A stretch of DNA of 45,614 nt from Eledone cirrhosa (taxonomy: Eukaryota): the NCBI GenBank assembly GCA_964016885.1, contig CAXHJY010001277.1, positions 1 to 45,614 on the forward strand, written 5' to 3'. Positions 4,486-45,614 of the stretch are shown here, piece by piece. The notes below the pieces were generated by a model. It saw nothing but the letters and a program-made list of their open reading frames with translations. It was not told the origin of the DNA and ran no database searches. Position 1 is the first letter of the stretch. Each line of letters opens with the position of its first letter. The position numbers and the translations under genes were made by a program.

Positions 4486-5175
4486 GTAGGGAAAACTACG
4501 TATGCAGTAGTAATCGCAGTGATAGACACATTTTTCAAATGCAGGTGGGTTTTATAGAAGTGGTTGATAGCTTCCGGTACCTAGGTGATCAGATTAGCAT
4601 GTTCCGAGGCCATAGTATCTAGAATAAGGACGTGTTGGAAGAAGTTTATGGAGCTGCTTCCTCTGTTGACAATAAAGGGTTTCTCCTTGCGTACGAAAGG
4701 CCGGTTATATGATGCCTGTGTGAGATGCGCGATGCTGCATGGTAGGGAAACATGGGCAGCAACTGCAGAAGATATGCGACGGCTGGAGAGAAATGAAGCA
4801 AGCATGCTCCGTTGGATGTGCAATATCAATGTGCGTGAACGACCAAGCATAGATGAGTTGAGAGAGAAACTGTGTATAAGAGGGATAAGTTGTGTTGTGC
4901 GAGAGAGAAGACTGAGATGGTATGGACATGTGATGCGCATGAAAGATGACCGCTGGGTAAAGAAATGCAAAGAAATCCCAATAGAAGGAAGACGCAGTAG
5001 AAGACCACGAAAGACATGGGCAGAAGTGGTAAGAGCAGACCTCAAATCGCTGAAACTCACGGAGGAGATGACGAAGGACGGTGACAAGTGGAGAGATGCT
5101 GTGCTGAATAGGACCCGCCCCACCCTTGCAAGCAGGGAAAAGCGGACGTAAAATGATGATGATGATGATGATGAT
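4484..5175 (+). mobile_element. 5'-truncated RTE-type LINE (RT C-terminus) with (GAT)n tail
   Basis: IEVVDSFRYLGDQIS, KGRLYDACVRCAMLHG, RRLRWYGHVMRM, RRPRKTW motifs; ends GGACGTAAA(ATG)n; paralogous to 22800-23401. Confidence 0.9.
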
Positions 5176-12895: not shown

Positions 12896-13058
12896 GCTGG
12901 ACTAAAAAGTCACACTCGTTCAGCGCATCGGTAGGGGTTCTCCTACATGGATATAAAGTAGTGGCCGTACTCGAAAACGAATTGGCAGCCACCATGTATG
13001 TATGTATGTATGTATGTATGTATGTATGTATGTATGTATGTATGTATGTACGTATGTA
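12896..13058 (+). mobile_element. 5'-truncated copy of the RTE-derived non-autonomous element with (TATG)n tail
   Basis: Near-identical to the 3' ends of 24003-24576 and 36353-36923. Confidence 0.9.
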
Positions 13059-13613
13059 TAATGTGCTGTGGTGGGAGAGAGATGAAGAAGAGAAAAACAG
13101 AGAAAATAGAAGCTATTGTCGATGTTGGCCTCGATGTCCGCCCATATTGAAAAGCTAATAAAATCATAGCTTATTATTAAAATAAATTAAGATTGGGTGT
13201 GTCGAAAATGATCGAGACAGAACGTTGAGGGATATGAAGTTCATAGAAAAATGGCAAACTGAAATGCGATAAAAATCTACCTCTTCCCCCTCTCATGCAT
13301 GTTGCTGTTACTATTTCTTCCGCTTATTACCACTACCATTGCTTCTTCAGCCCTAAAAATATACCTTTATGCTTGCCCGGGTAGGTGGATGGATAGGTAG
13401 GTAGATATATTGGTTGATAGATAAGTGTGAACGTTTTTGTTTCTACATATGGATGAATATTAGAGAAATTGATGGGATTGTATGAGAAGGTAGATAGAGA
13501 ACCACCACTTATTCTTATTGGCAACATGACCCTCCCAAATTATAACAATATCGGTTTCAACACACGTTTTCAGATAAAGAATCTTGCTAAACAAATTCAG
13601 AAACGAAATATAT

Positions 13614-14776: not shown

Positions 14777-14846
<70 letters not shown>

Positions 14847-14927
14847 TACATATATATATACACATACATACATATATATATACATAATTATATATATATA
14901 CATATACATATATATATACATATACAT

Positions 14928-14991
<64 letters not shown>

Positions 14992-15073
14992 ATATATATA
15001 TACACATACATACATATATATATACATAATTATATATATATATACATATACATATATATATACATATACATAT

Positions 15074-15158
<85 letters not shown>

Positions 15159-15171
15159 CATATACATATAT
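14777..15171. repeat. (TA)n/(TACA)n microsatellite
   Basis: Direct reading; C variants on the + strand. Confidence 0.97.
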
Positions 15172-15173
15172 AA

Positions 15174-15374
15174 AATAAAAGCAAAAACAAAAACCATAAC
15201 CTACATAAAAATAACCACTACCACAGTCACCAACAGTCTTCTAAACAGGAAACTTCTTCCTCTTTTTTAGCCATAATGAATCTGGCAAAAGAACTGGAAA
15301 AAAACATTCGAGCTATCACCCAGCACCACCCTCCACTATCACCCCACTGCACAAACTCCCATTGCTGCCATTAA
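15174..15374 (+). CDS. Probable C-terminal remnant of LINE ORF1
   Basis: Open frame [12 protein letters not shown]...[27 protein letters not shown]...HCCH* directly upstream of and overlapping ORF2; truncated 5' by microsatellite; no homology test possible. Confidence 0.5.
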
Positions 15375-18300
15375 CAAACAAACAAATTAACAACACACCA
15401 AAACAATTAAAACCATCCACTCTCGCCTCTACATTTTTGCTTAACGCCCAAGGCATCAGCCCTTCCACCAATACTCAAAAATGGAAGATCAAATTCCTGG
15501 AGGACTGGATTGATGTCCATCCAAACCACATCCCTTTCTTCGTCCTCACTGAAACCCATCTCAGTAACCTCCACTTGGAAGCCGAGGTGAAAGTGAAAAA
15601 TTTCAAAGCCATCCGTGCTGATCGCGCTGGCAGAAGAAAGGGCGGAACTGCCATTTATGTCCATAATTCTTTCTCAACAGAGGCTATGAACATATTCACT
15701 AATGGATACTGTGAGGCAGTCACTGTATTCAGTCAAACCAACAACCTATTAGTAGTTGGGCTCTATAGGCCACCCCAAACGCCTGTACCATGCTTCAAGG
15801 AATGCCTCAACAGCATAAAGTGTTTCATCCAAGAGTGTCACCCTGACAACATCTTAATGATGGGGGACTTCAACCTCCCCGGAGTTGACTGGTCCACAAA
15901 CACCCTGCCACCAGGTTCTTCTGCCTCAACCTCTGACAGGGAAGCTGTGGAATCGCTTCTTGACTTCATGGATGATTTCTTCCTATCCCAACTAGTGCTC
16001 GAACCAACGAGGTGCCACAAAAACGTCCTAGACTTAATTTTCAGCAATCACACTGACAATATCCACAATATTGCAGTGGAGAAAACTCTACTCTCTGATC
16101 ATGACATGGTTCTCTGTGATCTGAGATTCCACCGTCCAATATATAAACCCAATGTCATTTCTCCTGTCCATCCGTTTGACGCTATGGATTTCCACAATGC
16201 AAACTGGGAAGCGATCAGTCATGATCTTGCACATGTCGACTGGTCCTTCACGCACACTCATACACCCACTAACATCAAAAAGTCCTGGCAGACATTTGTG
16301 GACACTGTTACAAACATATGTGCTAAACACACCCCATTAAGAACTATAAACAAATCTAAGAGCAGAATCCCTAGAAATAGAAAAACGCTCATCAGAAAAA
16401 TTAAGAGAACGAACAAAAAAATCAACAAGCTGAAATACTGTCAGCAGCAACACATCAACTTGACTGCCATTTCATCACTAGAGATTAAAAAACATAACCT
16501 CCAAAACAACATAATGTCCCTCATCAACAATCAGAGAAGAGCTGAAGAGGCCTGGGCCATTGAGAAGATCAAACTCAATCCCAAAGTGTTCTTTTCATTT
16601 GCAAAAAAACACAAAATCACTGGCTCTACTGTTGGCCCTCTAATTGATGAAAATGGCACTCTTCAAGACAATGCTAAAACCATGGGTGAGATACTGCAGA
16701 AACAATACTGCTCTGTTTTCAGCAATCCTGATATGGCCGATCTGGGCTGTATCGGCGATGTTACTCCCCATTACACCTTATCGGACATAACGTTTGGCGC
16801 CCCTGATGTCTTGGCGGCAATAAAGGAAATCAAGCATAATTCAGCAGTAGGTCCCGATAGGTTCCCTGCTTGTGTCTTGAAGGCGTGTCAACACCAACTT
16901 GCTTCTCCTCTTGCCAATCTGTGGCGGAACTCACTGGATGCTGGATATGTGCCAGAAAACCTTCTATCCCAGTCTGTTGTCCCAGTTTTCAAAAAGGGAA
17001 ACAAATCCCTTGCCGTGAATTACCGTCCAATCTCACTCACCTCTCATATCATTAAGGTATTTGAGCGAGTGGTGAGATCGCGAATGACCCACTTCCTTGA
17101 GAGTAACAATATGCTGAACTCCAACCAGCATGGATTCCGTAATGGAAGGGATTGCCTGACGCAACTACTGCATCACTTTGATGACATTTTGAGAGCCTTG
17201 GGAGAGGGTTCCAACACTGATGTTATCTACCTTGATTTCAGCAAGGCCTTTGACAGGGTTGATCATAACATTCTACTGAGAAAGCTGTCCAATATTGGTG
17301 TCACTGGAAAGCTGCTGCAGTGGATCAAGAGCTTCCTGTCAAACAGAACCCAACATGTTGTAGTTGAGGGAGTCAAATCAAGCCCAGCCAAAGTCAGTAG
17401 TGGAGTCCCACAAGGCACTGTGTTGGGCCCACTTCTCTTCATCATCTATATTAATGACATCACTGACATCATCAAACACAGCAACATTAAAATTTTCGCT
17501 GATGATTCCAAGCTCCAAAAGGTCATCAATGGCGTGGATGACCGGATAAGCCTTCAGTCAGACCTACTGGCTGTTACCCAATGGGCAGAAAAGAACAACA
17601 TGTTACTGAACGAAGACAAATTCGAACTGATCCACTTTGGAAAAGAGGATGCTCTGAAACTCCCGTACTCCCTTCCCTCCGGGGAAACTCTCGTGGCATC
17701 TAACAACATCAGAGACTTGGGAGTAACCGTGGACAGCAACATAAGCTGGACCACGCATATAAGCAGCAAAGTTGACATGGCCCGCAGAATGTGTTCCTGG
17801 ATCCTCAGAACCTTCCAGTCGAGAGATTCCCGTACCATTATCCTTCTCTTCTCTACTTTCGCCCGACCACACCTTGAATACTGTTGTCCACTGTGGTCTC
17901 CCCACACGAAACAAAGTATCATGAAACTTGAAGCTCCTCAAAGGGCAATCACGAAAAAGATAGATGGCATGTCAGACCTTGACTACTGGGGTCGATTGGA
18001 AAACCTGAAACTTTACTCACTCCAACGTCGCCGTGAGCGTTATATTATCTGCATGATGTGGAAAATGTTCCATCATCACTGCCCAAATGATGTTGGCATC
18101 GCCTTCAAGATACACCCAAGGCTTGGGCCCCGTGCTATCCGTCCCATTCAAAAATCTAAATCGCAACTCATAACAACAATACGGCACAATTATTTCACCT
18201 CAATCGGCCCTGCTCTCTTCAACATCACACCAGGACACGTCAAAACAGAAACTGACCACACAAAATTCAAGAAGTCTTTGGACAAATTCCTCCAAGTAAT

Positions 18301-18382
18301 CCCGGACAAACCACCCACACCCGGATATGTCTCCGCAAACAGTAATTCTCTTCTCGAATGGGCCATGGTGCCCAAATCCTGA
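15362..18382 (+). CDS. LINE ORF2: apurinic-like endonuclease plus reverse transcriptase (CR1 clade)
   Basis: EN motifs LNAQG, LTETHL, GGTAIYV, YRPP, GDFN, LDL, SDH; RT motifs YRPISLTS, QHGF, YLDFSKAFDRVDH, GVPQGTVLGP, FADD, RDLGV; CR1-type RPHLEYC..WSP and SLQRRR. The frame is open from 15245 and the listed start codon is TTG, not ATG. Confidence 0.97.
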   Translation: MLPLTNKQINNTPKQLKPSTLASTFLLNAQGISPSTNTQKWKIKFLEDWIDVHPNHIPFFVLTETHLSNLHLEAEVKVKNFKAIRADRAGRRKGGTAIYVHNSFSTEAMNIFTNGYCEAVTVFSQTNNLLVVGLYRPPQTPVPCFKECLNSIKCFIQECHPDNILMMGDFNLPGVDWSTNTLPPGSSASTSDREAVESLLDFMDDFFLSQLVLEPTRCHKNVLDLIFSNHTDNIHNIAVEKTLLSDHDMVLCDLRFHRPIYKPNVISPVHPFDAMDFHNANWEAISHDLAHVDWSFTHTHTPTNIKKSWQTFVDTVTNICAKHTPLRTINKSKSRIPRNRKTLIRKIKRTNKKINKLKYCQQQHINLTAISSLEIKKHNLQNNIMSLINNQRRAEEAWAIEKIKLNPKVFFSFAKKHKITGSTVGPLIDENGTLQDNAKTMGEILQKQYCSVFSNPDMADLGCIGDVTPHYTLSDITFGAPDVLAAIKEIKHNSAVGPDRFPACVLKACQHQLASPLANLWRNSLDAGYVPENLLSQSVVPVFKKGNKSLAVNYRPISLTSHIIKVFERVVRSRMTHFLESNNMLNSNQHGFRNGRDCLTQLLHHFDDILRALGEGSNTDVIYLDFSKAFDRVDHNILLRKLSNIGVTGKLLQWIKSFLSNRTQHVVVEGVKSSPAKVSSGVPQGTVLGPLLFIIYINDITDIIKHSNIKIFADDSKLQKVINGVDDRISLQSDLLAVTQWAEKNNMLLNEDKFELIHFGKEDALKLPYSLPSGETLVASNNIRDLGVTVDSNISWTTHISSKVDMARRMCSWILRTFQSRDSRTIILLFSTFARPHLEYCCPLWSPHTKQSIMKLEAPQRAITKKIDGMSDLDYWGRLENLKLYSLQRRRERYIICMMWKMFHHHCPNDVGIAFKIHPRLGPRAIRPIQKSKSQLITTIRHNYFTSIGPALFNITPGHVKTETDHTKFKKSLDKFLQVIPDKPPTPGYVSANSNSLLEWAMVPKS

Positions 18383-18767
18383 ATTGAAAGACTTCGCCAG
18401 GTGGTGCTATTAAGTTAGACATGGCCTGGGCCAATACTGGCCAAAACATTTCAAAGTTATTCAAAGTTATATAAATTAGAAATTATAAGCTTTCACCGTA
18501 TTTTAGACTAAAGAAATTTCTAGCCTGATAGTGGGGTTTATAACCCTCGGAGAAATGGAAAAAGATGAGTGTTGCCGTACATGTAGAGCAAACATCACGG
18601 GCGCTCTATCTCAAAATTATTTTTGAAAAGCATTAGAAATGCGCAACCGGTAAAAGTTTAAAACCAAAACTGAATACTAACCAATACTATTACTAATTTT
18701 TGCTTATTCCTAATTAAACTATTTTTCACTGGGAACAATTTGTCAGCATTTTCTCTTCCGTTTACCA

Positions 18768-18799
<32 letters not shown>

Positions 18800-21365
18800 T
18801 TCACATTTATTATTACTATATTTAGAGATTATTTTATAACCTTCTCGTTCGTTTTCTAAAATAACCTTCTCGTTTGTTTAATTATGGCCGAAATTCTAGG
18901 ATTTTATAAAATAGCCTTCCTGCTCCCTCCTATTCTTTACCCCCCCCCCCCCCTATATATATCGTATACGCGCCAGCTGGTTCTCTCTCTCAATCCCTTC
19001 TTTCTCTCTCCAAATATAAAATAAACCTGTTGCGAGGTACGAAACTCAGAATTTGTCAATCCCTTATTACTGGCAAGACTGCTCGCTCCTCTGTGAAATG
19101 TAATGTACAACGCCATTTTTTTCTCTTCTCTCCATCTTCCCCAGTCCATTCATCTATCCGTATCATCGTCCAGAATCCAATCTTTGCTTTTTTTCAATGC
19201 TATTCTATAATTCTGTCTGATTGTTCAAAATAATCTTCTTGTTTTTTAAAATCCCATAATTCTTCTCTTATTACTGTTATATGCTTGTTCAATTATGCCC
19301 AACATTCGAGGATTTTATTTAAACCTTCTCGCTAACTAACCCATACACCTCCTCCACTCGCCACCAAAATGCAAGGGTCCCTCCTATTTATTTCGGCCGC
19401 GGATGGCCAACATAACCCCATCGCCCTCACCCCTCCCTGCGCCCCCACCGTTCCCACCCATCAAACGCAATCCAAAACTTCAGAGTTGGTACCATGAATG
19501 TAGGCACCTTAAAAGGTCGATTCATTGTAGGTAAAAGACGATGCGATAAGCTTTTCTGGGTGGGAAATGACAATGGGCTGGGTGGAGTAGGAATCATGCT
19601 AGCTGAAAAATGGGCAGATAAGATAATAGACGTAAATAGAGTGAACGACAGAATAATTAAAATAAGACTTGTCCTAAATAGAACAACTGTGACAATAATA
19701 TCTGCGTACGCACCCCAATCCGGACTGCCTGGCGTTATAAAAGACAGATTCTATGAGTCATTAATGCTCACTCCCTCCCAAATAACCGACAGTGACTACA
19801 TAGTTATTGCTGGCGACCTAAATGGTCACGTTGGACAACATTGTGACGGCTATGACGGAATCCATGGAGGCTATGGGTTTGGTACTAGAAATGAGGAAGG
19901 CTCCAGAATCCTGGAATTCTGTGACGCAAATAACCTAACTATCTGTAACACTAACTTCAAAAAACGAGACAATCACTTGATCACCTAGAGATCAGGGGAA
20001 CACGCCAGTCAGATAAATTATATCCTTACCAGAAGACGTGACAGAGTGTCTGTTGTAAACACTAAATCCCTCCCCCATGAAGAATGCACCTCCCAACATA
20101 GACTCATAGTTAGCGACCTCATAGTCAGGACAAGACGTACTCGACAACAGAGGACTATCCTCAGGAGAAAAATATGGAAGCTAAAGGACCCCACAGCCAT
20201 TAATAAATTTAAAAGCATATTACTTGATGCTTTTGACAGTAAGGAAGAGCAATTAGAGTCGTACAATATAGAGGAACAGTGGGAATTCCTGAAAGCTAAC
20301 CTGCTGAAGGCGACAGATGAAGTCTGAGGCTGGAGCAGACCTATAGGCAGGAGGAGAGTAACGTGGTGGTGGAACAGTAAGGTGGAGGAGTCAATCAAGG
20401 CCAAAAAGCAGACTTGGAAAGTATGGCGGGATGGGGGAAATAGAGAAGACTATCAAGTGGCCAGGAGGGAAGCTAGGAGACAAGTGTACATTGCAAGAAG
20501 GGAAGCAGAGGAAAGAAAGTTCAAGCATGTTCTACAACGCGAGGACCAAAAACGTGAGGTGTTCAGGATTGCGAGACAATCTGTCAAGGAGAACCGTGAT
20601 ATTGTCGGGGAGAAGTGTATCCGTAATGATGATGGTGTACTTGCCATCACTGACGCTGATAAGAAGGTAGCTTGGAAGTGTCACTACAAAAGGCTACTAA
20701 ATGAGGAGAATAAATGGGAGAAAGACAGTCTCCCCCACATCGATCCAATAGAGGGACCAGCAGTGCAAGTTGAAGGTAGTATAAGTAAGGCAATCAAAGA
20801 TATGAAGACGAGCAAGGCGGCTGGGCCTTCGGAAATAGTTGCTGAAATGCTGAAAGCATCTGGAACGGTGGGACACACTATGGTCACCCGGATAGTAAAC
20901 CCAGTCATACAGAATGGGGTCGTACCGAAGGACTGGCGTAGCAGCATCATCATTAACTGCTACAAGGGTAAAGGAGATGCCCTAGATAGGGGAAACTATA
21001 GAGGCATTAAATTTATTGACCAGGTCATGAAGGTCACAGAAAAAGTAATAGCGCAAATAATCAGAGAGCGAATTGATCTGGATGAAATGCAGTTCGGGTT
21101 TGTGTCATGTAAAAGTACCACAGACGCTCTTTTCATTGTACGACAACTGCAGGAGAAGTACCTAGCTAAAAGTAAACCCCTCTACTTAGCTTTTGTAGAC
21201 CTGGAGAAAGCCTTTGACAGAGTCCCACGCCCCATTATCTGGTGGGCTCTCAGAAAACTAGGTGTTGATGAATGGCTTGTGAGCGATATACAAGCCATGT
21301 ATAAAGAAACAGTCAGCAAGGTTAGAATTAACAACGAATATAGTGAAGAGTTTAGCGTAAAAGTT

Positions 21366-22336
21366 TGTAGCAAGAGATGCCTCCCTTGTCATGACAATCT
21401 CATCACCGCTCTCTAGACAGGAAGTAGCTGGAGTTGCTTCCCTTTGGGATTGACAGACTCCCTGTTGGTCACTTCCAGTCACCTCCTATAATAGGAACAG
21501 GTCACCACCATATCTCTCTCTTGCCTCCTGATTTCCGAAGTGGTAACACCTGCGACCTTAGCTTGACATGATTCATTTTTGATAATCCTTCTCTTACTTT
21601 TATTACATTGTACCATAATTTTCATGCCTCTTACATGCTCGCCATCTTACTCCATGCATGCTTCTTTCGATTTTTATGTTTTAAAAATCTGGCGGGAGAT
21701 AATGTAGCAAGAGTTGCCTCCCTTGTCATGACAATCTCATCACCGCTCTCTAGACAGGAAGTAGCTGGAGTTGCTTCCCTTTGGGATTGACAGACTCCCT
21801 GTTGGTCACTTCCGGTCACCTATGAAAGGAACAAGCCACCACGATATCTCTCTCTTGCCTCCTGATTTCCGAAGTGGTAACACCTGCGACCTTAGCTTGA
21901 GATGATTCATTTTTGATAATCCTTCGCTACCAAGAACAATGCAACTTGCAGCCTAAGAGCCTAAGATGTTAATACCAGCTAGAAAAGATCTCTTCTTTTC
22001 TCTACCAACTTCAACCTGGAGTTGTGACCATCGGGTAACGAATCCTTAATATTTAATACCTTTGACTTCTATGAACTAACGGCGAATTGGCAGTATCGGT
22101 AGAGGGTCGGACGTCATGCTTTGTAGCATAGTGTTTCGGCTTTTTATGATCTGAGTTCAAATCCCACCGAGGTTAACTTTGCCTTTCATCCTTACGAGGT
22201 CGATAAAATAAAGTACCAGTAATGCACTGGGGTAATTGCTGGCCTTGTGTCAAAAGTAGAAATAATTATTACAACACACACCGGTATTTACTGTCTTTTA
22301 TAATAATTTTGTGTGCACCGATACTAATCTCCTAAA
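21366..22336 (+). mobile_element. LTR-retrotransposon deletion derivative nested in the RTE RT gene
   Basis: Direct repeats starting TGTAGCAAG at 21366-21591 and 21703-21925; purine tract GGCGGGAGATAA before the second; junctions share TAAAAGTT (21358-21365 and 22333-22340); the RT frame FSVK-VGVHQG is restored on removal. Confidence 0.7.
22081..22270 (+). mobile_element. SINE family A nested inside the LTR remnant
   Basis: TTGGCAGTATCGG..GAGTTCAAATCCC..GTAGAAATAATTATT. Confidence 0.85.
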
Positions 22337-23915
22337 AGTTGGTGTTCATCAGGGCTCCGTTCTTAGTTAGCCCTCTCCTATTTATTATTGCCCTTCAGGC
22401 TATAGCAGAGGAGTTCAAGACCGGCTGCCCATGGGAACTCCTATACGCTGATGATCTAACGCTTATAGCTGAATCAATGGCTGAACTAGAGAAGAAATTC
22501 CAAACATGGAAGCATGGCCTAGAATCAAAAGGCCTTAAAATTAACCTGTCTAAGACTAAAGTTCTAGTATGTAGGAAGGAAAATAGGGCACTCGTCCCAT
22601 CTGGGAAATGGCCATGCTCAGTGTGTAGGAAAGGAGTAAGCAGAAACTCCATTTTATGTCCCAAATGCAAAGTATGGGTGCATAAAAGATGTAGTGGGAT
22701 CACAGGTAAGCTAACTAAGAATATAGATTTTATATGTGGCCTGTGCTCAGGTGCAATAGGTAGCAGCAAGTACCCACAGAATACTAGCCCATTCCATTGC
22801 ACAGATGGTTCTATAGAAATAGTGGACACCTTCCGTTACTTGGGTGACAAAATCAGCAGTGGTGGAGGGTGCCCTGATAGTACAGTAGCTAGAGTCAGAA
22901 CGGGATGGAAAAGGCTCAGACAGCTTATACCACTATTGGCCGCTAAAAGGTTTCTCTCTAAAAATAAAAGGCAGGCTGTATGATGCCTGCATCCGAACAG
23001 TAATGTTACATGGCAGTGAGACATGGGCATTGTGTGCAGAGGATCTACGCAGACTGGAGAGGAACAAAGCTTGCATGCTCCGTTGAATGTGTAATAGTAA
23101 TATACGTGAACGGCAAAGCATAAATGAATTAAGTGAGAAATTAGGAATAAGAGGGATCAGATGCTGTTTACTTGAGAGAAGACTACGTTGGTATGGTCAC
23201 GTGATGCGCATGAAAGACGACAGCTGTATAAAAAAGTGCAGGACGATAAAAATAGACGGTAGCCACGGAGTAGGCAGACCCAGAAAAACCTGGGACGACT
23301 TGATAAATTCCGACCTCACACGCTTACACCTCTCCAAGACAATGTCACTGGACCGAGATCTTTGGCGCTACGCAGTAATACAGAAGACCCGCCTTGCCTA
23401 AGTGCAAAGCGAAACCTACAGTCAGTAGGCACCTCTTACCAAAATACACGCTGTCCCACTACCCCCACCCCATCCACACCCTTCGATGTAAAGTTATGTT
23501 GGTACCACAACATCCAGTCCTAAATAAATGAGGTCGTGTAGGTGTCACGACAAAAAAACACACAGTCCACGCTGTAATGTGGCCGTGTAGGTAACACGGT
23601 AAAAACCTCCCAGTCCACACTGTAAACGTGGATGGGTGTTAGGAAGGGCATCCAGCTGTAGAAAACCCGCCAGACAGTCCTATACGAGTAAGACAACCAA
23701 TCTTGCCTCAAGTGGGAAAATTCCCGTCCAAACCCATGCTAGCGTGGAAGATGGACGTTAAACGATGATGATGATGATATAGTCAGTCGATCGACTTTCG
23801 TCAAATCGGACCGATGTATGTATGTATGTATGTATGTATATATATATATGTATGTATAAGTATGTATATATGGGAAATGAAATTTCGTTTCATTTTTTCC
23901 GTTTATATATGTATG

Positions 23916-23947
<32 letters not shown>

Positions 23948-24002
23948 TGTATGTATGTATGTATGTATGTATGTATGTATGTATGTATGTATATATATGT
24001 AT

Positions 24003-24651
24003 CCCAGGACAACCTGTCACATGGTCGGGTCGTTGGCGACTAAACTGGCAACCTCACCAAGGTTTCTTGGTGAGGGGGGTGACTTTGAACATCCTGCAGG
24101 ACTAAAAACAAAACCTGTCAAAAGGTCAAAGGGCAAAGGAGCTCTTAAGAGTCAATGGCCATCCAAAATCACCGGGAGAGATGACCCCTTAGCCTTTGTC
24201 AAGGCAGAATAGTAGGAGAAGGAAAACTCTGATATAACACCTGCAACCCTGATGGTATCCAATGATGTTGACTTGTTCTTCTTTTTGGTAAATATCATCT
24301 TGGTTAAGAGAGTGGGACTGGCTTTGTACAGAGCCTATGCTCACTATAAAATCTTCACGGCACAGGCATTGCTTTATATCTGGAGATCTCTCTGCACTTG
24401 TCGTCACATGGTACCAGCACTATGTGTCAATAATTGTCACAAGTGTAGTGTTTGTACCAGAGTTTTCAAGTCGCTGGCTGGACTAAAAAGTCACACTCGT
24501 TCAAGGCATCAGTAGGGGTTCTCCTACATCGATATAAAGTAGTGGCCGTACTCGAAAACGAGTTGGCAGCCACCATGTATGTATGTATGTATGTATGTAT
24601 GTATGTATGTATGTATGTATGTATGTATGTATGTATGTATGTATGTATGTA
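24003..24651 (+). mobile_element. Non-autonomous RTE-derived retroelement (about 575 bp plus (TATG)n tail)
   Basis: Highly similar to 36353-36923; 3' part encodes [22 protein letters not shown], an RTE-type C-terminal zinc finger; no RT; flanked by TATG repeats. Confidence 0.8.
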
Positions 24652-24829
24652 TACATACAAAAACACAGGAGGCAATTTTACAATGTTATATTAGGTTAAC
24701 TCTTGGTGGAAGTGAAGGTTTCAGCGTTTCGGACAAAAGTCCTTCAGGTAAGTTCGGATAAGGAGAGAACAGATACTCCTAAGAGTAGTGTGAGAAGGGG
24801 GACCTTCGCCTTTGTTATTTTCTGTGGAA

Positions 24830-36159: not shown

Positions 36160-36177
36160 TGTATGTATATATATATG

Positions 36178-36210
<33 letters not shown>

Positions 36211-36352
36211 GTATGTATATATATATGTATGTATGTATATATATATGTATGTATATATATATATATATGTATGTATATATATATGTATGTATATATATAT
36301 GTATGTATATATATATATATGTATGTATATATATATGTATGTATATATATAT
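35099..36352. repeat. (TA)nTGTATG satellite-like array
   Basis: Direct reading; G almost only on the + strand. Confidence 0.98.
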
Positions 36353-36923
36353 CCAGTACAACCTGTCTCATGGTCGGGTCGTTGGCGACTAAACTGGCAA
36401 CCCCACCAAGGTTTCTTGGTGAGGAGGGTGACTTTGGACATCCTGCAGGACTAAAAACAAAACCTGTCAAAGGGCAAAGGAGCTCTTAAGAGTCAATGGC
36501 CATCCAAAATCACCGGGAGAGATGACCCCTTAGCCTTTGTCAAGGCAGAATTCTAGGAGAAGGAAAACTCTGATATAACACCTGCAACCCTGATGGTATC
36601 CAATGATGTTGACTTGTTCTTCTTTTTGGTAAATATCATCTTGGTTAAGAGAGTGGGACTGGCTTTGTGCAGTGCCTTTGCTCACTATAAAAGCTTCACG
36701 GCACAGGCATTGCTTTATATCTGGAGATCTCTCTGCACTTGTCGTCACATGGTACCATGGGCCCAACACTATGTGTCAATAATTGTCACAAGTGTAGTCT
36801 TTGTACGAGAGTTTTCAAGTCGCTGGCTGGACTAAAAAGTCACACTCGTTCAGCGCATCAGTAGGGGTTCTCCTACATGGATATAAAGTAGTGGCCGTAC
36901 TCGAAAACGAGTTGGCAGCCACC
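36353..36923 (+). mobile_element. Non-autonomous RTE-derived retroelement, second full copy
   Basis: Collinear with 24003-24576 apart from two small indels and point changes. Confidence 0.85.
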
Positions 36924-37378
36924 ATGTATATATATATGTATGTATATATATATGTATGTATATATATATGTATGTATATATATATATATGTATGTATATA
37001 TATATGTATGTATGTATATATGTATGTATGTATATATATATGTATGTATATATATATGTATGTATATATATATGTATGTATATATATATGTATGTATATA
37101 TATATATATGTATGTATATATATATGTATGTATATATATATGTATGTATGTATATATGTATGTATATATATATGTATGTATGTATATATGTATGTATGTA
37201 TATATGTATGTATGTATATATATATATATGTATGTATATATGTATGTATATATATATGTATGTATATATATATGTATGTATATATATATGTATGTATATA
37301 TATATGTATGTATATATATATGTATGTATATATATATATGTATGTATATATATATATATGTATGTATATATATATATG
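36924..37378. repeat. (TA)nTGTATG array
   Basis: Direct reading. Confidence 0.98.
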
Positions 37379-39914: not shown

Positions 39915-40184
39915 TGTATGTATATATATATGTATGTATATATATATGTATGTATATATATATGTATGTATATATATATGTATGTATATATATATGTATG
40001 TATATATATATGTATGTATATATATATGTATGTATATATATATGTATGTATATATATATGTATGTATATATATATGTATGTATATATATATGTATGTATA
40101 TATATATGTATGTATATATATATGTATGTATATATATATGTATGTATATATGTATGTATGTATATATATATGTATGTATATATA
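38072..40184. repeat. (TA)nTGTATG array, about 2.1 kb
   Basis: Direct reading. Confidence 0.98.
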
Positions 40185-42070
40185 TAACTTTGAATAACTT
40201 TGAAATGTTTTGGCCAGTATTGGCCCAGGCCATGTCTAACTTAATAGCACCACCTGGCGAAGTCTTTCAATTCAGGATTTGGGCACCATGGCCCATTCGA
40301 GAAGAGAATTACTGTTTGCGGAGACATATCCGGGTGTGGGTGGTTTGTCCGGGATTACTTGGAGGAATTTGTCCAAAGACTTCTTGAATTTTGTGTGGTC
40401 AGTTTCTGTTTTGACGTGTCCTGGTGTGATGTTGAAGAGAGCAGGGCCGATTGAGGTGAAATAATTGTGCCGTATTGTTGTTATGAGTTGCGATTTAGAT
40501 TTTTGAATGGGACGGATAGCACGGGGCCCAAGCCTTGGGTGTATCTTGAAGGCGATGCCAACATCATTTGGGCAGTGATGATGGAACATTTTCCACATCA
40601 TGCAGATAATATAACGCTCACGGCGACGTTGGAGTGAGTAAAGTTTCAGGTTTTCCAATCGACCCCAGTAGTCAAGGTCTGACATGCCATCTATCTTTTT
40701 CGTGATTGCCCTTTGAGGAGCTTCAAGTTTCATGATACTTTGTTTCGTGTGGGGAGACCACAGTGGACAACAGTATTCAAGGTGTGGTCGGGCGAAAGTA
40801 GAGAAGAGAAGGATAATGGTGCGGGAATCTCTCGACTGGAAGGTTCTGAGGATCCAGGAACACATTCTGCGGGCCATGTCAACTTTGCTGCTTATATGCG
40901 TGGTCCAGCTTATGTTGCTGTCCACGGTTACTCCCAAGTCTCTGATGTTGTTAGATGCCACGAGAGTTTCCCCGGAGGGAAGGGAGTACGGGAGTTTCAG
41001 AGCATCCTCTTTTCCAAAGTGGATCAGTTCGAATTTGTCTTCGTTCAGTAACATGTTGTTCTTTTCTGCCCATTGGGTAACAGCCAGTAGGTCTGACTGA
41101 AGGCTTATCCGGTCATCCACGCCATTGATGACCTTTTGGAGCTTGGAATCATCAGCGAAAATTTTAATGTTGCTGTGTTTGATGATGTCAGTGATGTCAT
41201 TAATATAGATGATGAAGAGAAGTGGGCCCAACACAGTGCCTTGTGGGACTCCACTACTGACTTTGGCTGGGCTTGATTTGACTCCCTCAACTACAACATG
41301 TTGGGTTCTGTTTGACAGGAAGCTCTTGATCCACTGCAGCAGCTTTCCAGTGACACCAATATTGGACAGCTTTCTCAGTAGAATGTTATGATCAACCCTG
41401 TCAAAGGCCTTGCTGAAATCAAGGTAGATAACATCAGTGTTGGAACCCTCTCCCAAGGCTCTCAAAATGTCATCAAAGTGATGCAGTAGTTGCGTCAGGC
41501 AATCCCTTCCATTACGGAATCCATGCTGGTTGGAGTTCAGCATATTGTTACTCTCAAGGAAGTGGGTCATTCGCGATCTCACCACTCGCTCAAATACCTT
41601 AATGATATGAGAGGTGAGTGAGATTGGACGGTAATTCACGGCAAGGGATTTGTTTCCCTTTTTGAAAACTGGACAACAGACTGGGATAGAAGGTTTTCTG
41701 GCACATATCCAGCATCCAGTGAGTTCCGCCACAGATTGGCAAGAGGAGAAGCAAGTTGGTGTTGACACGCCTTCAAGACACAAGCAGGGAACCTATCGGG
41801 ACCTACTGCTGAATTATGCTTGATTTCCTTTATTGCCGCCAAGACATCAGGGGCGCCAAACGTTATGTCCGATAAGGTGTAATGGGGAGTAACATCGCCG
41901 ATACAGCCCAGATCGGCCATATCAGGATTGCTGAAAACAGAGCAGTATTGTTTCTGCAGTATCTCACCCATGGTTTTAGCATTGTCTTGAAGAGTGCCAT
42001 TTTCATCAATTAGAGGGCCAACAGTAGAGCCAGTGATTTTGTGTTTTTTTGCAAATGAAAAGAACACTTT
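40185..42070 (-). mobile_element. CR1-clade LINE copy 2, 5'-truncated (RT only)
   Basis: Corresponds to 16583-18469 of copy 1; differences seen are a 1-bp deletion near 41671 (CCC to CC, frameshift) and a silent change near 40821. Confidence 0.97.
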
Positions 42071-45219
<3,149 letters not shown>

Positions 45220-45614
45220 TAACTTTCAAAATAACTTTCAAATGTTTTGGCCTGTATTGGCCCAGGCCATGTCTAACTTAATAGCACCACCTGGCGAAGT
45301 CTTCAATTCAGGATTTGGGCACCATGGCCCATTCGAGAAGAGAATTACTGTTTGCGGAGACATATCCGGGTGTGGGTGGTTTGTCCGGGATTACTTGGAG
45401 GAATTTGTCCAAAGACTTCTTGAATTTTGTGTGGTCAGTTTCTGTTTTGACGTGTCCTGGTGTGATGTTGAAGAGAGCAGGGCCGATTGAGGTGAAATAA
45501 TTGTGCCGTATTGTTGTTATGAGTTGCGATTTAGATTTTGAATGGGACGGATAGCACGGGGCCCAAGCCTTGGGTGTATCTTGAAGGCGATGCCAACATC
45601 ATTTGGGCAGTGAT
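45220..45614 (-). mobile_element. CR1-clade LINE copy 3, 3' end (runs off the window)
   Basis: Matches 40185-40582 with a few homopolymer indels and a variant tail TAACTTTCAAAATAACTTTCAA. Confidence 0.95.

Follow-up and report, generated by a model that had tools for sequence, protein, structure and literature searches.

The way in which the second open reading frame (ORF2) of LINEs is translated has been called unclear or unconventional in the accessible text of two reviews (PMC3708506, PMC5009743). In mammalian L1 a spacer lies between the two ORFs and ORF2 initiation is AUG-independent, according to the available part of one of them, which also covers HeT-A (PMC5009743), and for SART1 a UAAUG stop-start is described in the accessible sections of the other (PMC3708506). 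A change of frame has been stated for the Dictyostelium elements TRE5-A and TRE3-A, which need a -1 frameshift for ORF2 translation as given in the figure legend of a review (PMC5911963). Among retroviruses, the heptamer of HIV-1 gag-pol is U UUU UUA, and A AAA AAC is counted among the shiftiest heptamers, in the part of the review that was available (PMC5009743).

The locus described here, a CR1 LINE of the octopus Eledone cirrhosa, resembles L1 and SART1 in having two ORFs on one RNA, with ORF2 presumably made at a low level, and differs from both in a 130-nt overlap of the ORFs and in the lack of an ORF2-frame AUG near the stop. With TRE5-A and TRE3-A, which are L1-clade non-LTR elements and so belong to another clade and another kingdom, it would share the -1 frameshift that is stated for their ORF2. 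The likeness to HIV-1 gag-pol lies in the same heptamer and, if our proposal holds, in an RNA-binding ORF joined to a reverse transcriptase (RT) ORF by a -1 slip. In HIV, a strong 3' stem-loop accompanies the heptamer and a protease processes the fusion, whereas no stimulator was found at this locus and no protease domain was detected in the element by Pfam.

The window, by which we mean the whole stretch of 45,614 nt that was analyzed, is AT-rich and holds many TA and TATG microsatellites; the features of the element are collected in Table 1. The element runs from the point where the (TA)n array stops (15172) to a doubled 10-nt tail. Three copies are present, of which two are visibly 5'-truncated, all three have the 3' end in common and the doubled 10-nt unit closes copies 1 and 2; there are no LTRs. 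Divergence between copies is about 0.16%, and since the second copy is nearly identical and ORF2 is intact, the family appears, by sequence, to be young and to have been active recently in the host genome. Within the window the ORF1/ORF2 junction is present in one copy, as copies 2 and 3 do not reach it.

Table 1. Positions of the features of the CR1 element and its copies in the window.
Feature	Positions	Strand	Details
(TA)n/(TACA)n microsatellite	14777..15172	.	Array adjoined by the 5'-truncated element
Upstream frame, 3' remainder	15174..15374	+	66 codons (15174-15371) and TAA; Phe-Leu-x-x-Met motif, then amphipathic stretch
ORF1/ORF2 overlap	15245..15374	+	130 nt; ORF2 in the -1 frame
T TTT TTA	15263..15269	+	In ORF1 phase; candidate -1 shift site
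A AAA AAC	15299..15305	+	In ORF1 phase; Glu-Lys-Asn codons, A-rich strand
Near-cognate ORF2-frame starts before the endonuclease	15338..15439	+	ATC 15338, CTG 15347, TTG 15362, CTG 15365, ATT 15386, TTG 15437
ORF2	15245..18382	+	Intact, 1045 codons; longest coding frame of the window; TGA 18380-18382
3' UTR	18383..18469	+	Last part is the 10-nt tail unit, twice (18450-18469)
Second copy	40178..42070	-	99.84% identity over 1894 nt; deeper 5' truncation; without the junction
Third copy	45213..45614	-	98% identity; cut by the window edge, so that just the 3' end is present; frame break

The CR1 label, first given from the letters alone, agrees with the RT, which showed 4 differences in about 98 residues (by-eye comparison) from O.sinensis_33_LINE, a cluster of Octopus sinensis in the supplement to PMC10294476. 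In the accessible part of that work, O.sinensis_33_LINE is assigned to the Jockey superfamily and, by the authors' tree, to the CR1 clade, with 69 RT-bearing members (PMC10294476, Table S7). Given this near-identity we regard the element as a young CR1 copy, the grouping of the RT being made by proxy through O.sinensis_33_LINE. Proto2, an early lead for the clade, was dropped once the CR1 assignment had been made. The treatment of O.sinensis_33_LINE is an RT-only classification, and in its available text the ORF1/ORF2 junction is not discussed (PMC10294476).

ORF2 is immediately preceded by a stop in its own frame (TAA at 15242), and is open from 15245, as the sequence-only reading had described, to its TGA. 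Pfam placed an AP endonuclease (PF03372, residues 82-286; also PF14529) and an RT (PF00078, residues 585-828) behind an N-terminal linker of about 66 residues. The first in-frame ATG was likewise confirmed to lie 108 codons after 15362, past the endonuclease motifs LNAQG (15440-15454) and LTETHL (15545-15562), at 15686; this is codon 148, inside the endonuclease. Decay is an unlikely cause of the missing AUG, as the family is young. However, while the absence of an AUG stands, its force as an argument for frameshifting is weaker than had been claimed from the sequence, since ORF2 initiation in mammalian LINEs is described as AUG-independent and two distant loci (L002 and L006, below) are AUG-less too. 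Indeed, the junction-bearing distant loci differ, with the AUG lacking in one at -1 and in one at +1, so that a missing AUG alone does not imply a -1 shift.

The upstream frame ends where it was originally said to end, with ORF2 at -1 relative to it. It is short because the element is truncated against the (TA)n array; for the same reason this copy carries at most the tail of ORF1, which is what the 66-codon frame probably represents. It agrees with a crab ORF1 (P0186) in motif, in phase and in how far it lies from the endonuclease; the sequence similarity between the two is not significant (P 0.81). No homologue of the 66-aa peptide was obtained by direct search (0/6 candidates scored), Pfam gave no hit, matches in the Atlas were all below 0.9 and of the helical look-alike kind, and none of four window translations was present in the protein collection by exact look-up. 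In the ORF2 frame there are 5 stops in the 29 codons before T TTT TTA and 0 in the 37 after it, although the openness of the -1 frame from the heptamer to the ORF1 stop is not significant alone (P 0.24). No ORF2 AUG coincides with or adjoins the ORF1 stop in the manner of SART1, there being no ORF2-frame ATG before 15686; the TAATG at 15274 was rejected as such a stop-start, as it joins the third frame to the ORF1 frame and not to ORF2.

Both heptamers of the overlap were verified to have the X XXY YYZ phase in the upstream frame. A AAA AAC is the frameshift heptamer of MMTV. The T run within T TTT TTA, the sole T6 in 3.3 kb, is the longest that the element has on its sense strand, and the -1 frame is open past this heptamer, as the X XXY YYZ pattern of a canonical -1 signal requires. 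In 5000 dinucleotide shuffles, the 130-nt overlap held at least two in-phase heptamers with P 0.033 and at least one with P 0.24. When the upstream peptide was resampled synonymously (20000 draws), P was 0.004 for TTTTTTA and 0.22 for AAAAAAC, so only the U-heptamer goes beyond chance. In ORF2 of the window, TTT makes up 21% of Phe codons and TTA 6% of Leu codons, TTG being commoner than TTA; by this codon use, Phe-Leu would be spelled T TTT TTA with a probability of about 0.003, and under a generous AT-rich null with one of 0.08.

A family of the porcelain crab Petrolisthes manimaculis offers both frames of a related junction, one in an intact ORF1 (P0186; KAK4329139.1) and the other in a gene model with an ORF2-frame segment (P0094; KAK4302915.1). 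The tail of the former and the segment of the latter are two frames of one DNA, with ORF2 at -1 and 97/98 residues compatible, as against at most 30% at any other of the 650 offsets tried. As deduced from the two protein frames, the crab codons are forced to TTT TTT AGA, which places T TTT TTA under ORF1 Phe-Leu-Asp-Leu-Met, at a site 68 aa upstream of the endonuclease Asn; the counterpart in the window is Phe-Leu-Ala-Ile-Met, 60 aa before the Asn. T TTT TTA is the only in-phase heptamer possible in the crab overlap, where A AAA AAC cannot occur, and the Phe-Leu tail motif is found in 10/11 members of the P0186 cluster. Motif, phase and position are the grounds on which we propose that the two sites are homologous; no significant alignment was obtained between the tails. 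The crab family thus resembles the octopus element in T TTT TTA at an ORF1 Phe-Leu-x-x-Met and in ORF2 at -1, and differs in its endonuclease (36% identity), in a longer overlap with 61 ORF1 residues past the site, in having in-frame Met residues 15 and 2 aa upstream of the Asn, and in a purine-rich upstream stretch. Its ORF1 shows a resemblance to CCCH clusters and a match to PHD that stays under the curated cut-off, and its gene model bridges the two frames by a predicted intron.

In a wider search with the first 320 residues of ORF2, 7229 proteins were matched and the best 150 analyzed; 143 of these could be anchored on the catalytic Glu, 92 had a recognizable Asn motif of the endonuclease, and in 23 the sequence reached 40 aa or more upstream of the Asn. 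Read in the -1 frame, T TTT TTA gives Phe-Phe followed by a residue with an A-starting codon. In the window this is Phe-Phe-Ser, 60 aa upstream of the endonuclease Asn. Among the dipeptides of the 23 extensions, FF had the strongest enrichment (11 vs 0.75 expected), and FF followed by an A-startable residue (Arg, Ser or Ile) was found in 7/23, at 48-95 aa before the Asn, against a shuffle mean of 0.58, with 0/5000 composition-preserving shuffles reaching 7; FF before a G-starting residue was found in 0/23. The probability of 7/23 is 2e-5 with the codon use of the element and 0.08 under the generous AT-rich null. The result holds at six length cut-offs; at a lower one with 39 proteins, one more case, FFA (P0067), was added without altering it. 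All seven FF relatives can read Phe-Leu and then hydrophobic residues in the ORF1 frame, and three of them, the crab one included, have an in-frame Met before the endonuclease. The eight FF elements, with 31-45% endonuclease identity, are scattered over one clade (support 99/93). FF was not found in 16 of the 23 long relatives, many of which may start downstream of the site; it is absent from the closest long relative (P0068), which is apparently degenerate. Conservation of the heptamer beyond the need of the protein may be indicated by the crab family and, at the protein level, by 7/23 relatives; an imperfect first base is implied in P0059 (LFR) and P0126 (IFR), and in the P0040 family this base is forced to C or G. 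Judged from these proteins, protein constraint alone would poorly explain the recurrence of T TTT TTA across a diverse CR1 lineage.

The Lys-Lys signature that A AAA AAC would leave in the ORF2 frame is not enriched (2/23 vs 2.74 expected). In view of this, of its frequency by chance and of its exclusion in the crab, A AAA AAC was rejected as a second functional site and is probably an incidental by-product. The -1 frameshifting at two heptamers proposed from the sequence gains comparative support at U UUU UUA only.

Predicted starts inside the endonuclease were noted in 45/143 anchored relatives from the best 150 of 7229, which is consistent with a widespread lack of an upstream AUG, gene-predictor start calls being weak evidence; the closest relative (P0033, 68% identity) is predicted to start 17 aa upstream of the endonuclease Asn. 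Two predicted proteins, P0140 and P0083, seemingly join pieces of ORF1 (the end of a CCCH finger; a C-terminal helix) in frame to ORF2 and appear, from sequence, to be mutated copies or natural single-ORF fusions. One member of the cluster of P0036 (P0201) is labelled Gadus morhua, suggesting that the lineage is in a fish assembly too.

A scan of genome contigs gave 15 further loci (L001-L015), of which six span the junction and five were placed in the tree, L004 being omitted because it is almost a copy of L009; these five fall outside the FF clade. In L002, a distant member of the CR1 group, ORF2 is AUG-less and lies in a -1 overlap of 52 nt (1063-1114), A AAA AAC occurs in phase, and a stable stem follows downstream, the best of 16 windows having z about -2.7 against mononucleotide shuffles; this locus is a second candidate for frameshifting. 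In L006 the overlap is +1 and there is no AUG, L011 is at +1 with a Met just before the ORF1 stop, L004 and L009 have their ORFs in the same frame with a Met, and the junction of L010 is complex. The upstream ORF of L010 (3-1592) is an unusual ORF1 in which a NADAR domain (E 2e-10) is accompanied by a weak match to PHD. All 15 loci are eukaryotic LINE sequences inside bacterial and archaeal genome bins, most likely as host contamination. Plasmid sequences searched for DNA of relatives gave no match.

Downstream of the U-heptamer, a stimulatory stem-loop or pseudoknot at a distance of 5-9 nt was not found by folding or by Rfam, pseudoknots being covered only through a listing of stems. None of the downstream regions folds better than its shuffles (z 0.18, 0.06, -0.11, -0.54, -0.55), and the best of 16 windows 3' of the heptamer reached z -1.41. 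The GCCA/TGGC stem pointed out in the sequence-only reading does exist; as a stimulator it was rejected, as it follows a heptamer with no spacer (0 nt) and has z about 0. Directly 5' of the U-heptamer lies a weak hairpin (15247-15261; -3.6 kcal/mol, z -0.45), no better than shuffles. Rfam gave only weak matches, on the TA repeat, and no frameshift element. As the stimulator test failed, the site was not classed as a canonical -1 signal; at best, it works like one.

With no usable start codon and with an HIV-type slippery sequence that recurs in distant relatives, the enzyme is likely made by a -1 slip. We put slightly better than even chances on low-level -1 frameshifting at U UUU UUA that would yield an ORF1-ORF2 fusion. 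In this mechanism, a small share of the ribosomes on ORF1 would slip back by one base at the heptamer, where tRNA-Phe and tRNA-Leu would presumably re-pair from UUU UUA to UUU UUU, and the slipped ribosomes would translate a linker of 60 residues and then the endonuclease and RT. The slippage would be unstimulated and low, which would suit the small need of a LINE for ORF2 protein, and A AAA AAC would not be needed. By analogy with the crab ORF1, the fusion may keep the PHD and CCCH fingers, with the C-terminal helix swapped from the shift site onward for linker, endonuclease and RT. We are more tentative, at a little under even chances, about the broader claim that a wide invertebrate CR1 lineage with ORF1 of the PHD/CCCH type (octopus, crab and many relatives) has kept U UUU UUA at a constant position within ORF1 and produces its RT as a fusion by stimulator-free -1 frameshifting.

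ORF2 may instead be a separate protein, made by AUG-independent termination-reinitiation at the near-cognate UUG 15362, CUG 15365 or AUU 15386, with Phe-Leu kept for the function of ORF1 and the U-run as a by-product. The positions of these triplets, of which the first two precede the ORF1 stop by 10 and 7 nt and the third follows it closely, would suit this, as would AUG-independent ORF2 initiation in mammalian LINEs (PMC5009743) and the stop-start coupling of SART1 (PMC3708506), as far as the accessible text of these sources goes; it is also favored by the ORF2-frame Met near the ORF1 stop in the crab relative, by the Met before the ORF1 stop of L011 and the AUG-less +1 overlap of L006, and by the absence of a stimulator structure. 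Yet selection on Phe-Leu at the protein level leaves the codons free, whereas window and crab both have T TTT TTA, and in 7/7 cases the residue after FF is A-startable and never G-starting, though TTG is the commoner Leu codon in ORF2; on balance we consider reinitiation unlikely. The pyrimidine tract and TAG at 15251-15270 could also be read as a 3' splice acceptor, through which a spliced RNA would obtain its AUG from an upstream exon that the truncated copy has lost. The site is the most pyrimidine-rich of the 67 YAG of the element (15/17 pyrimidines), and an AG follows the U-run in window and crab and could also be present in four or five more FF relatives, in which R or S comes after FF. 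However, pyrimidines make up only 22% of the 18 nt that precede the crab heptamer, P0117 reads FFI and hence has no AG, acceptor variants that contain C are not enriched in the 16 non-FF relatives (4/16 vs 3.75 expected), and an acceptor would not require U over C at the third position of Phe, all of which makes splicing improbable.

Some other route, be it internal non-AUG initiation, transcriptional slippage on the T6 or the copy-specific loss of a family AUG, would draw on the single junction-bearing copy of the window and on the predicted start of P0033 ahead of the endonuclease. Against these stand the low divergence between copies, which makes the loss of one specific ATG improbable, the many relatives whose predicted starts fall inside the endonuclease, and the length of the run, six bases being short for polymerase slippage; we consider these routes, even together, improbable.

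Returning to -1 frameshifting at U UUU UUA, if true it would be a retrovirus-like expression strategy that was not found in our literature search for any animal CR1 LINE, and a site common to elements with only 31-45% identity pinpoints a single position at which the mechanism can be tested in an animal LINE lineage. A real fusion would tie the RT covalently to the RNA-binding domains of ORF1, which would account directly for cis preference and for a constant ratio of ORF1 to ORF2. Moreover, the database ORF2 proteins of the lineage would be mis-started, as those that begin inside the endonuclease, and the crab model with its predicted intron would be a further case. In our literature search no report of a slippery site or -1 frameshift in CR1 was found, subscription papers and Repbase reports being thinly covered, so that an older note may exist. 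PHD-type ORF1s are described in PMC4120745, where CCCH or frameshifting is not mentioned in the accessible text, and the available part of PMC13343379 makes no mention of frameshift or overlap.

As to the setting of the family, its junctions adjoin TA or TATG microsatellites at 15172, 42070, 40178 and 45213, that is, at both visible 5' ends and at the 3' ends of copies 2 and 3, and the 3' side of copy 1 has only a short TATA; this is hinting at (TA)n targeting, or merely at the abundance of such repeats. The window further contains a broken second LINE with pieces of endonuclease and RT (19416-22983, + strand; 27% identity to the CR1 ORF2) and a related 3' fragment (4585-5151, + strand), which we take, from its motifs, to be RTE-like. 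Finally, an 854-nt near-duplicate (90%) lies at 23814-24656 and 36163-37005, and includes a microsatellite and a short repeat that is also present at 12896-13059.
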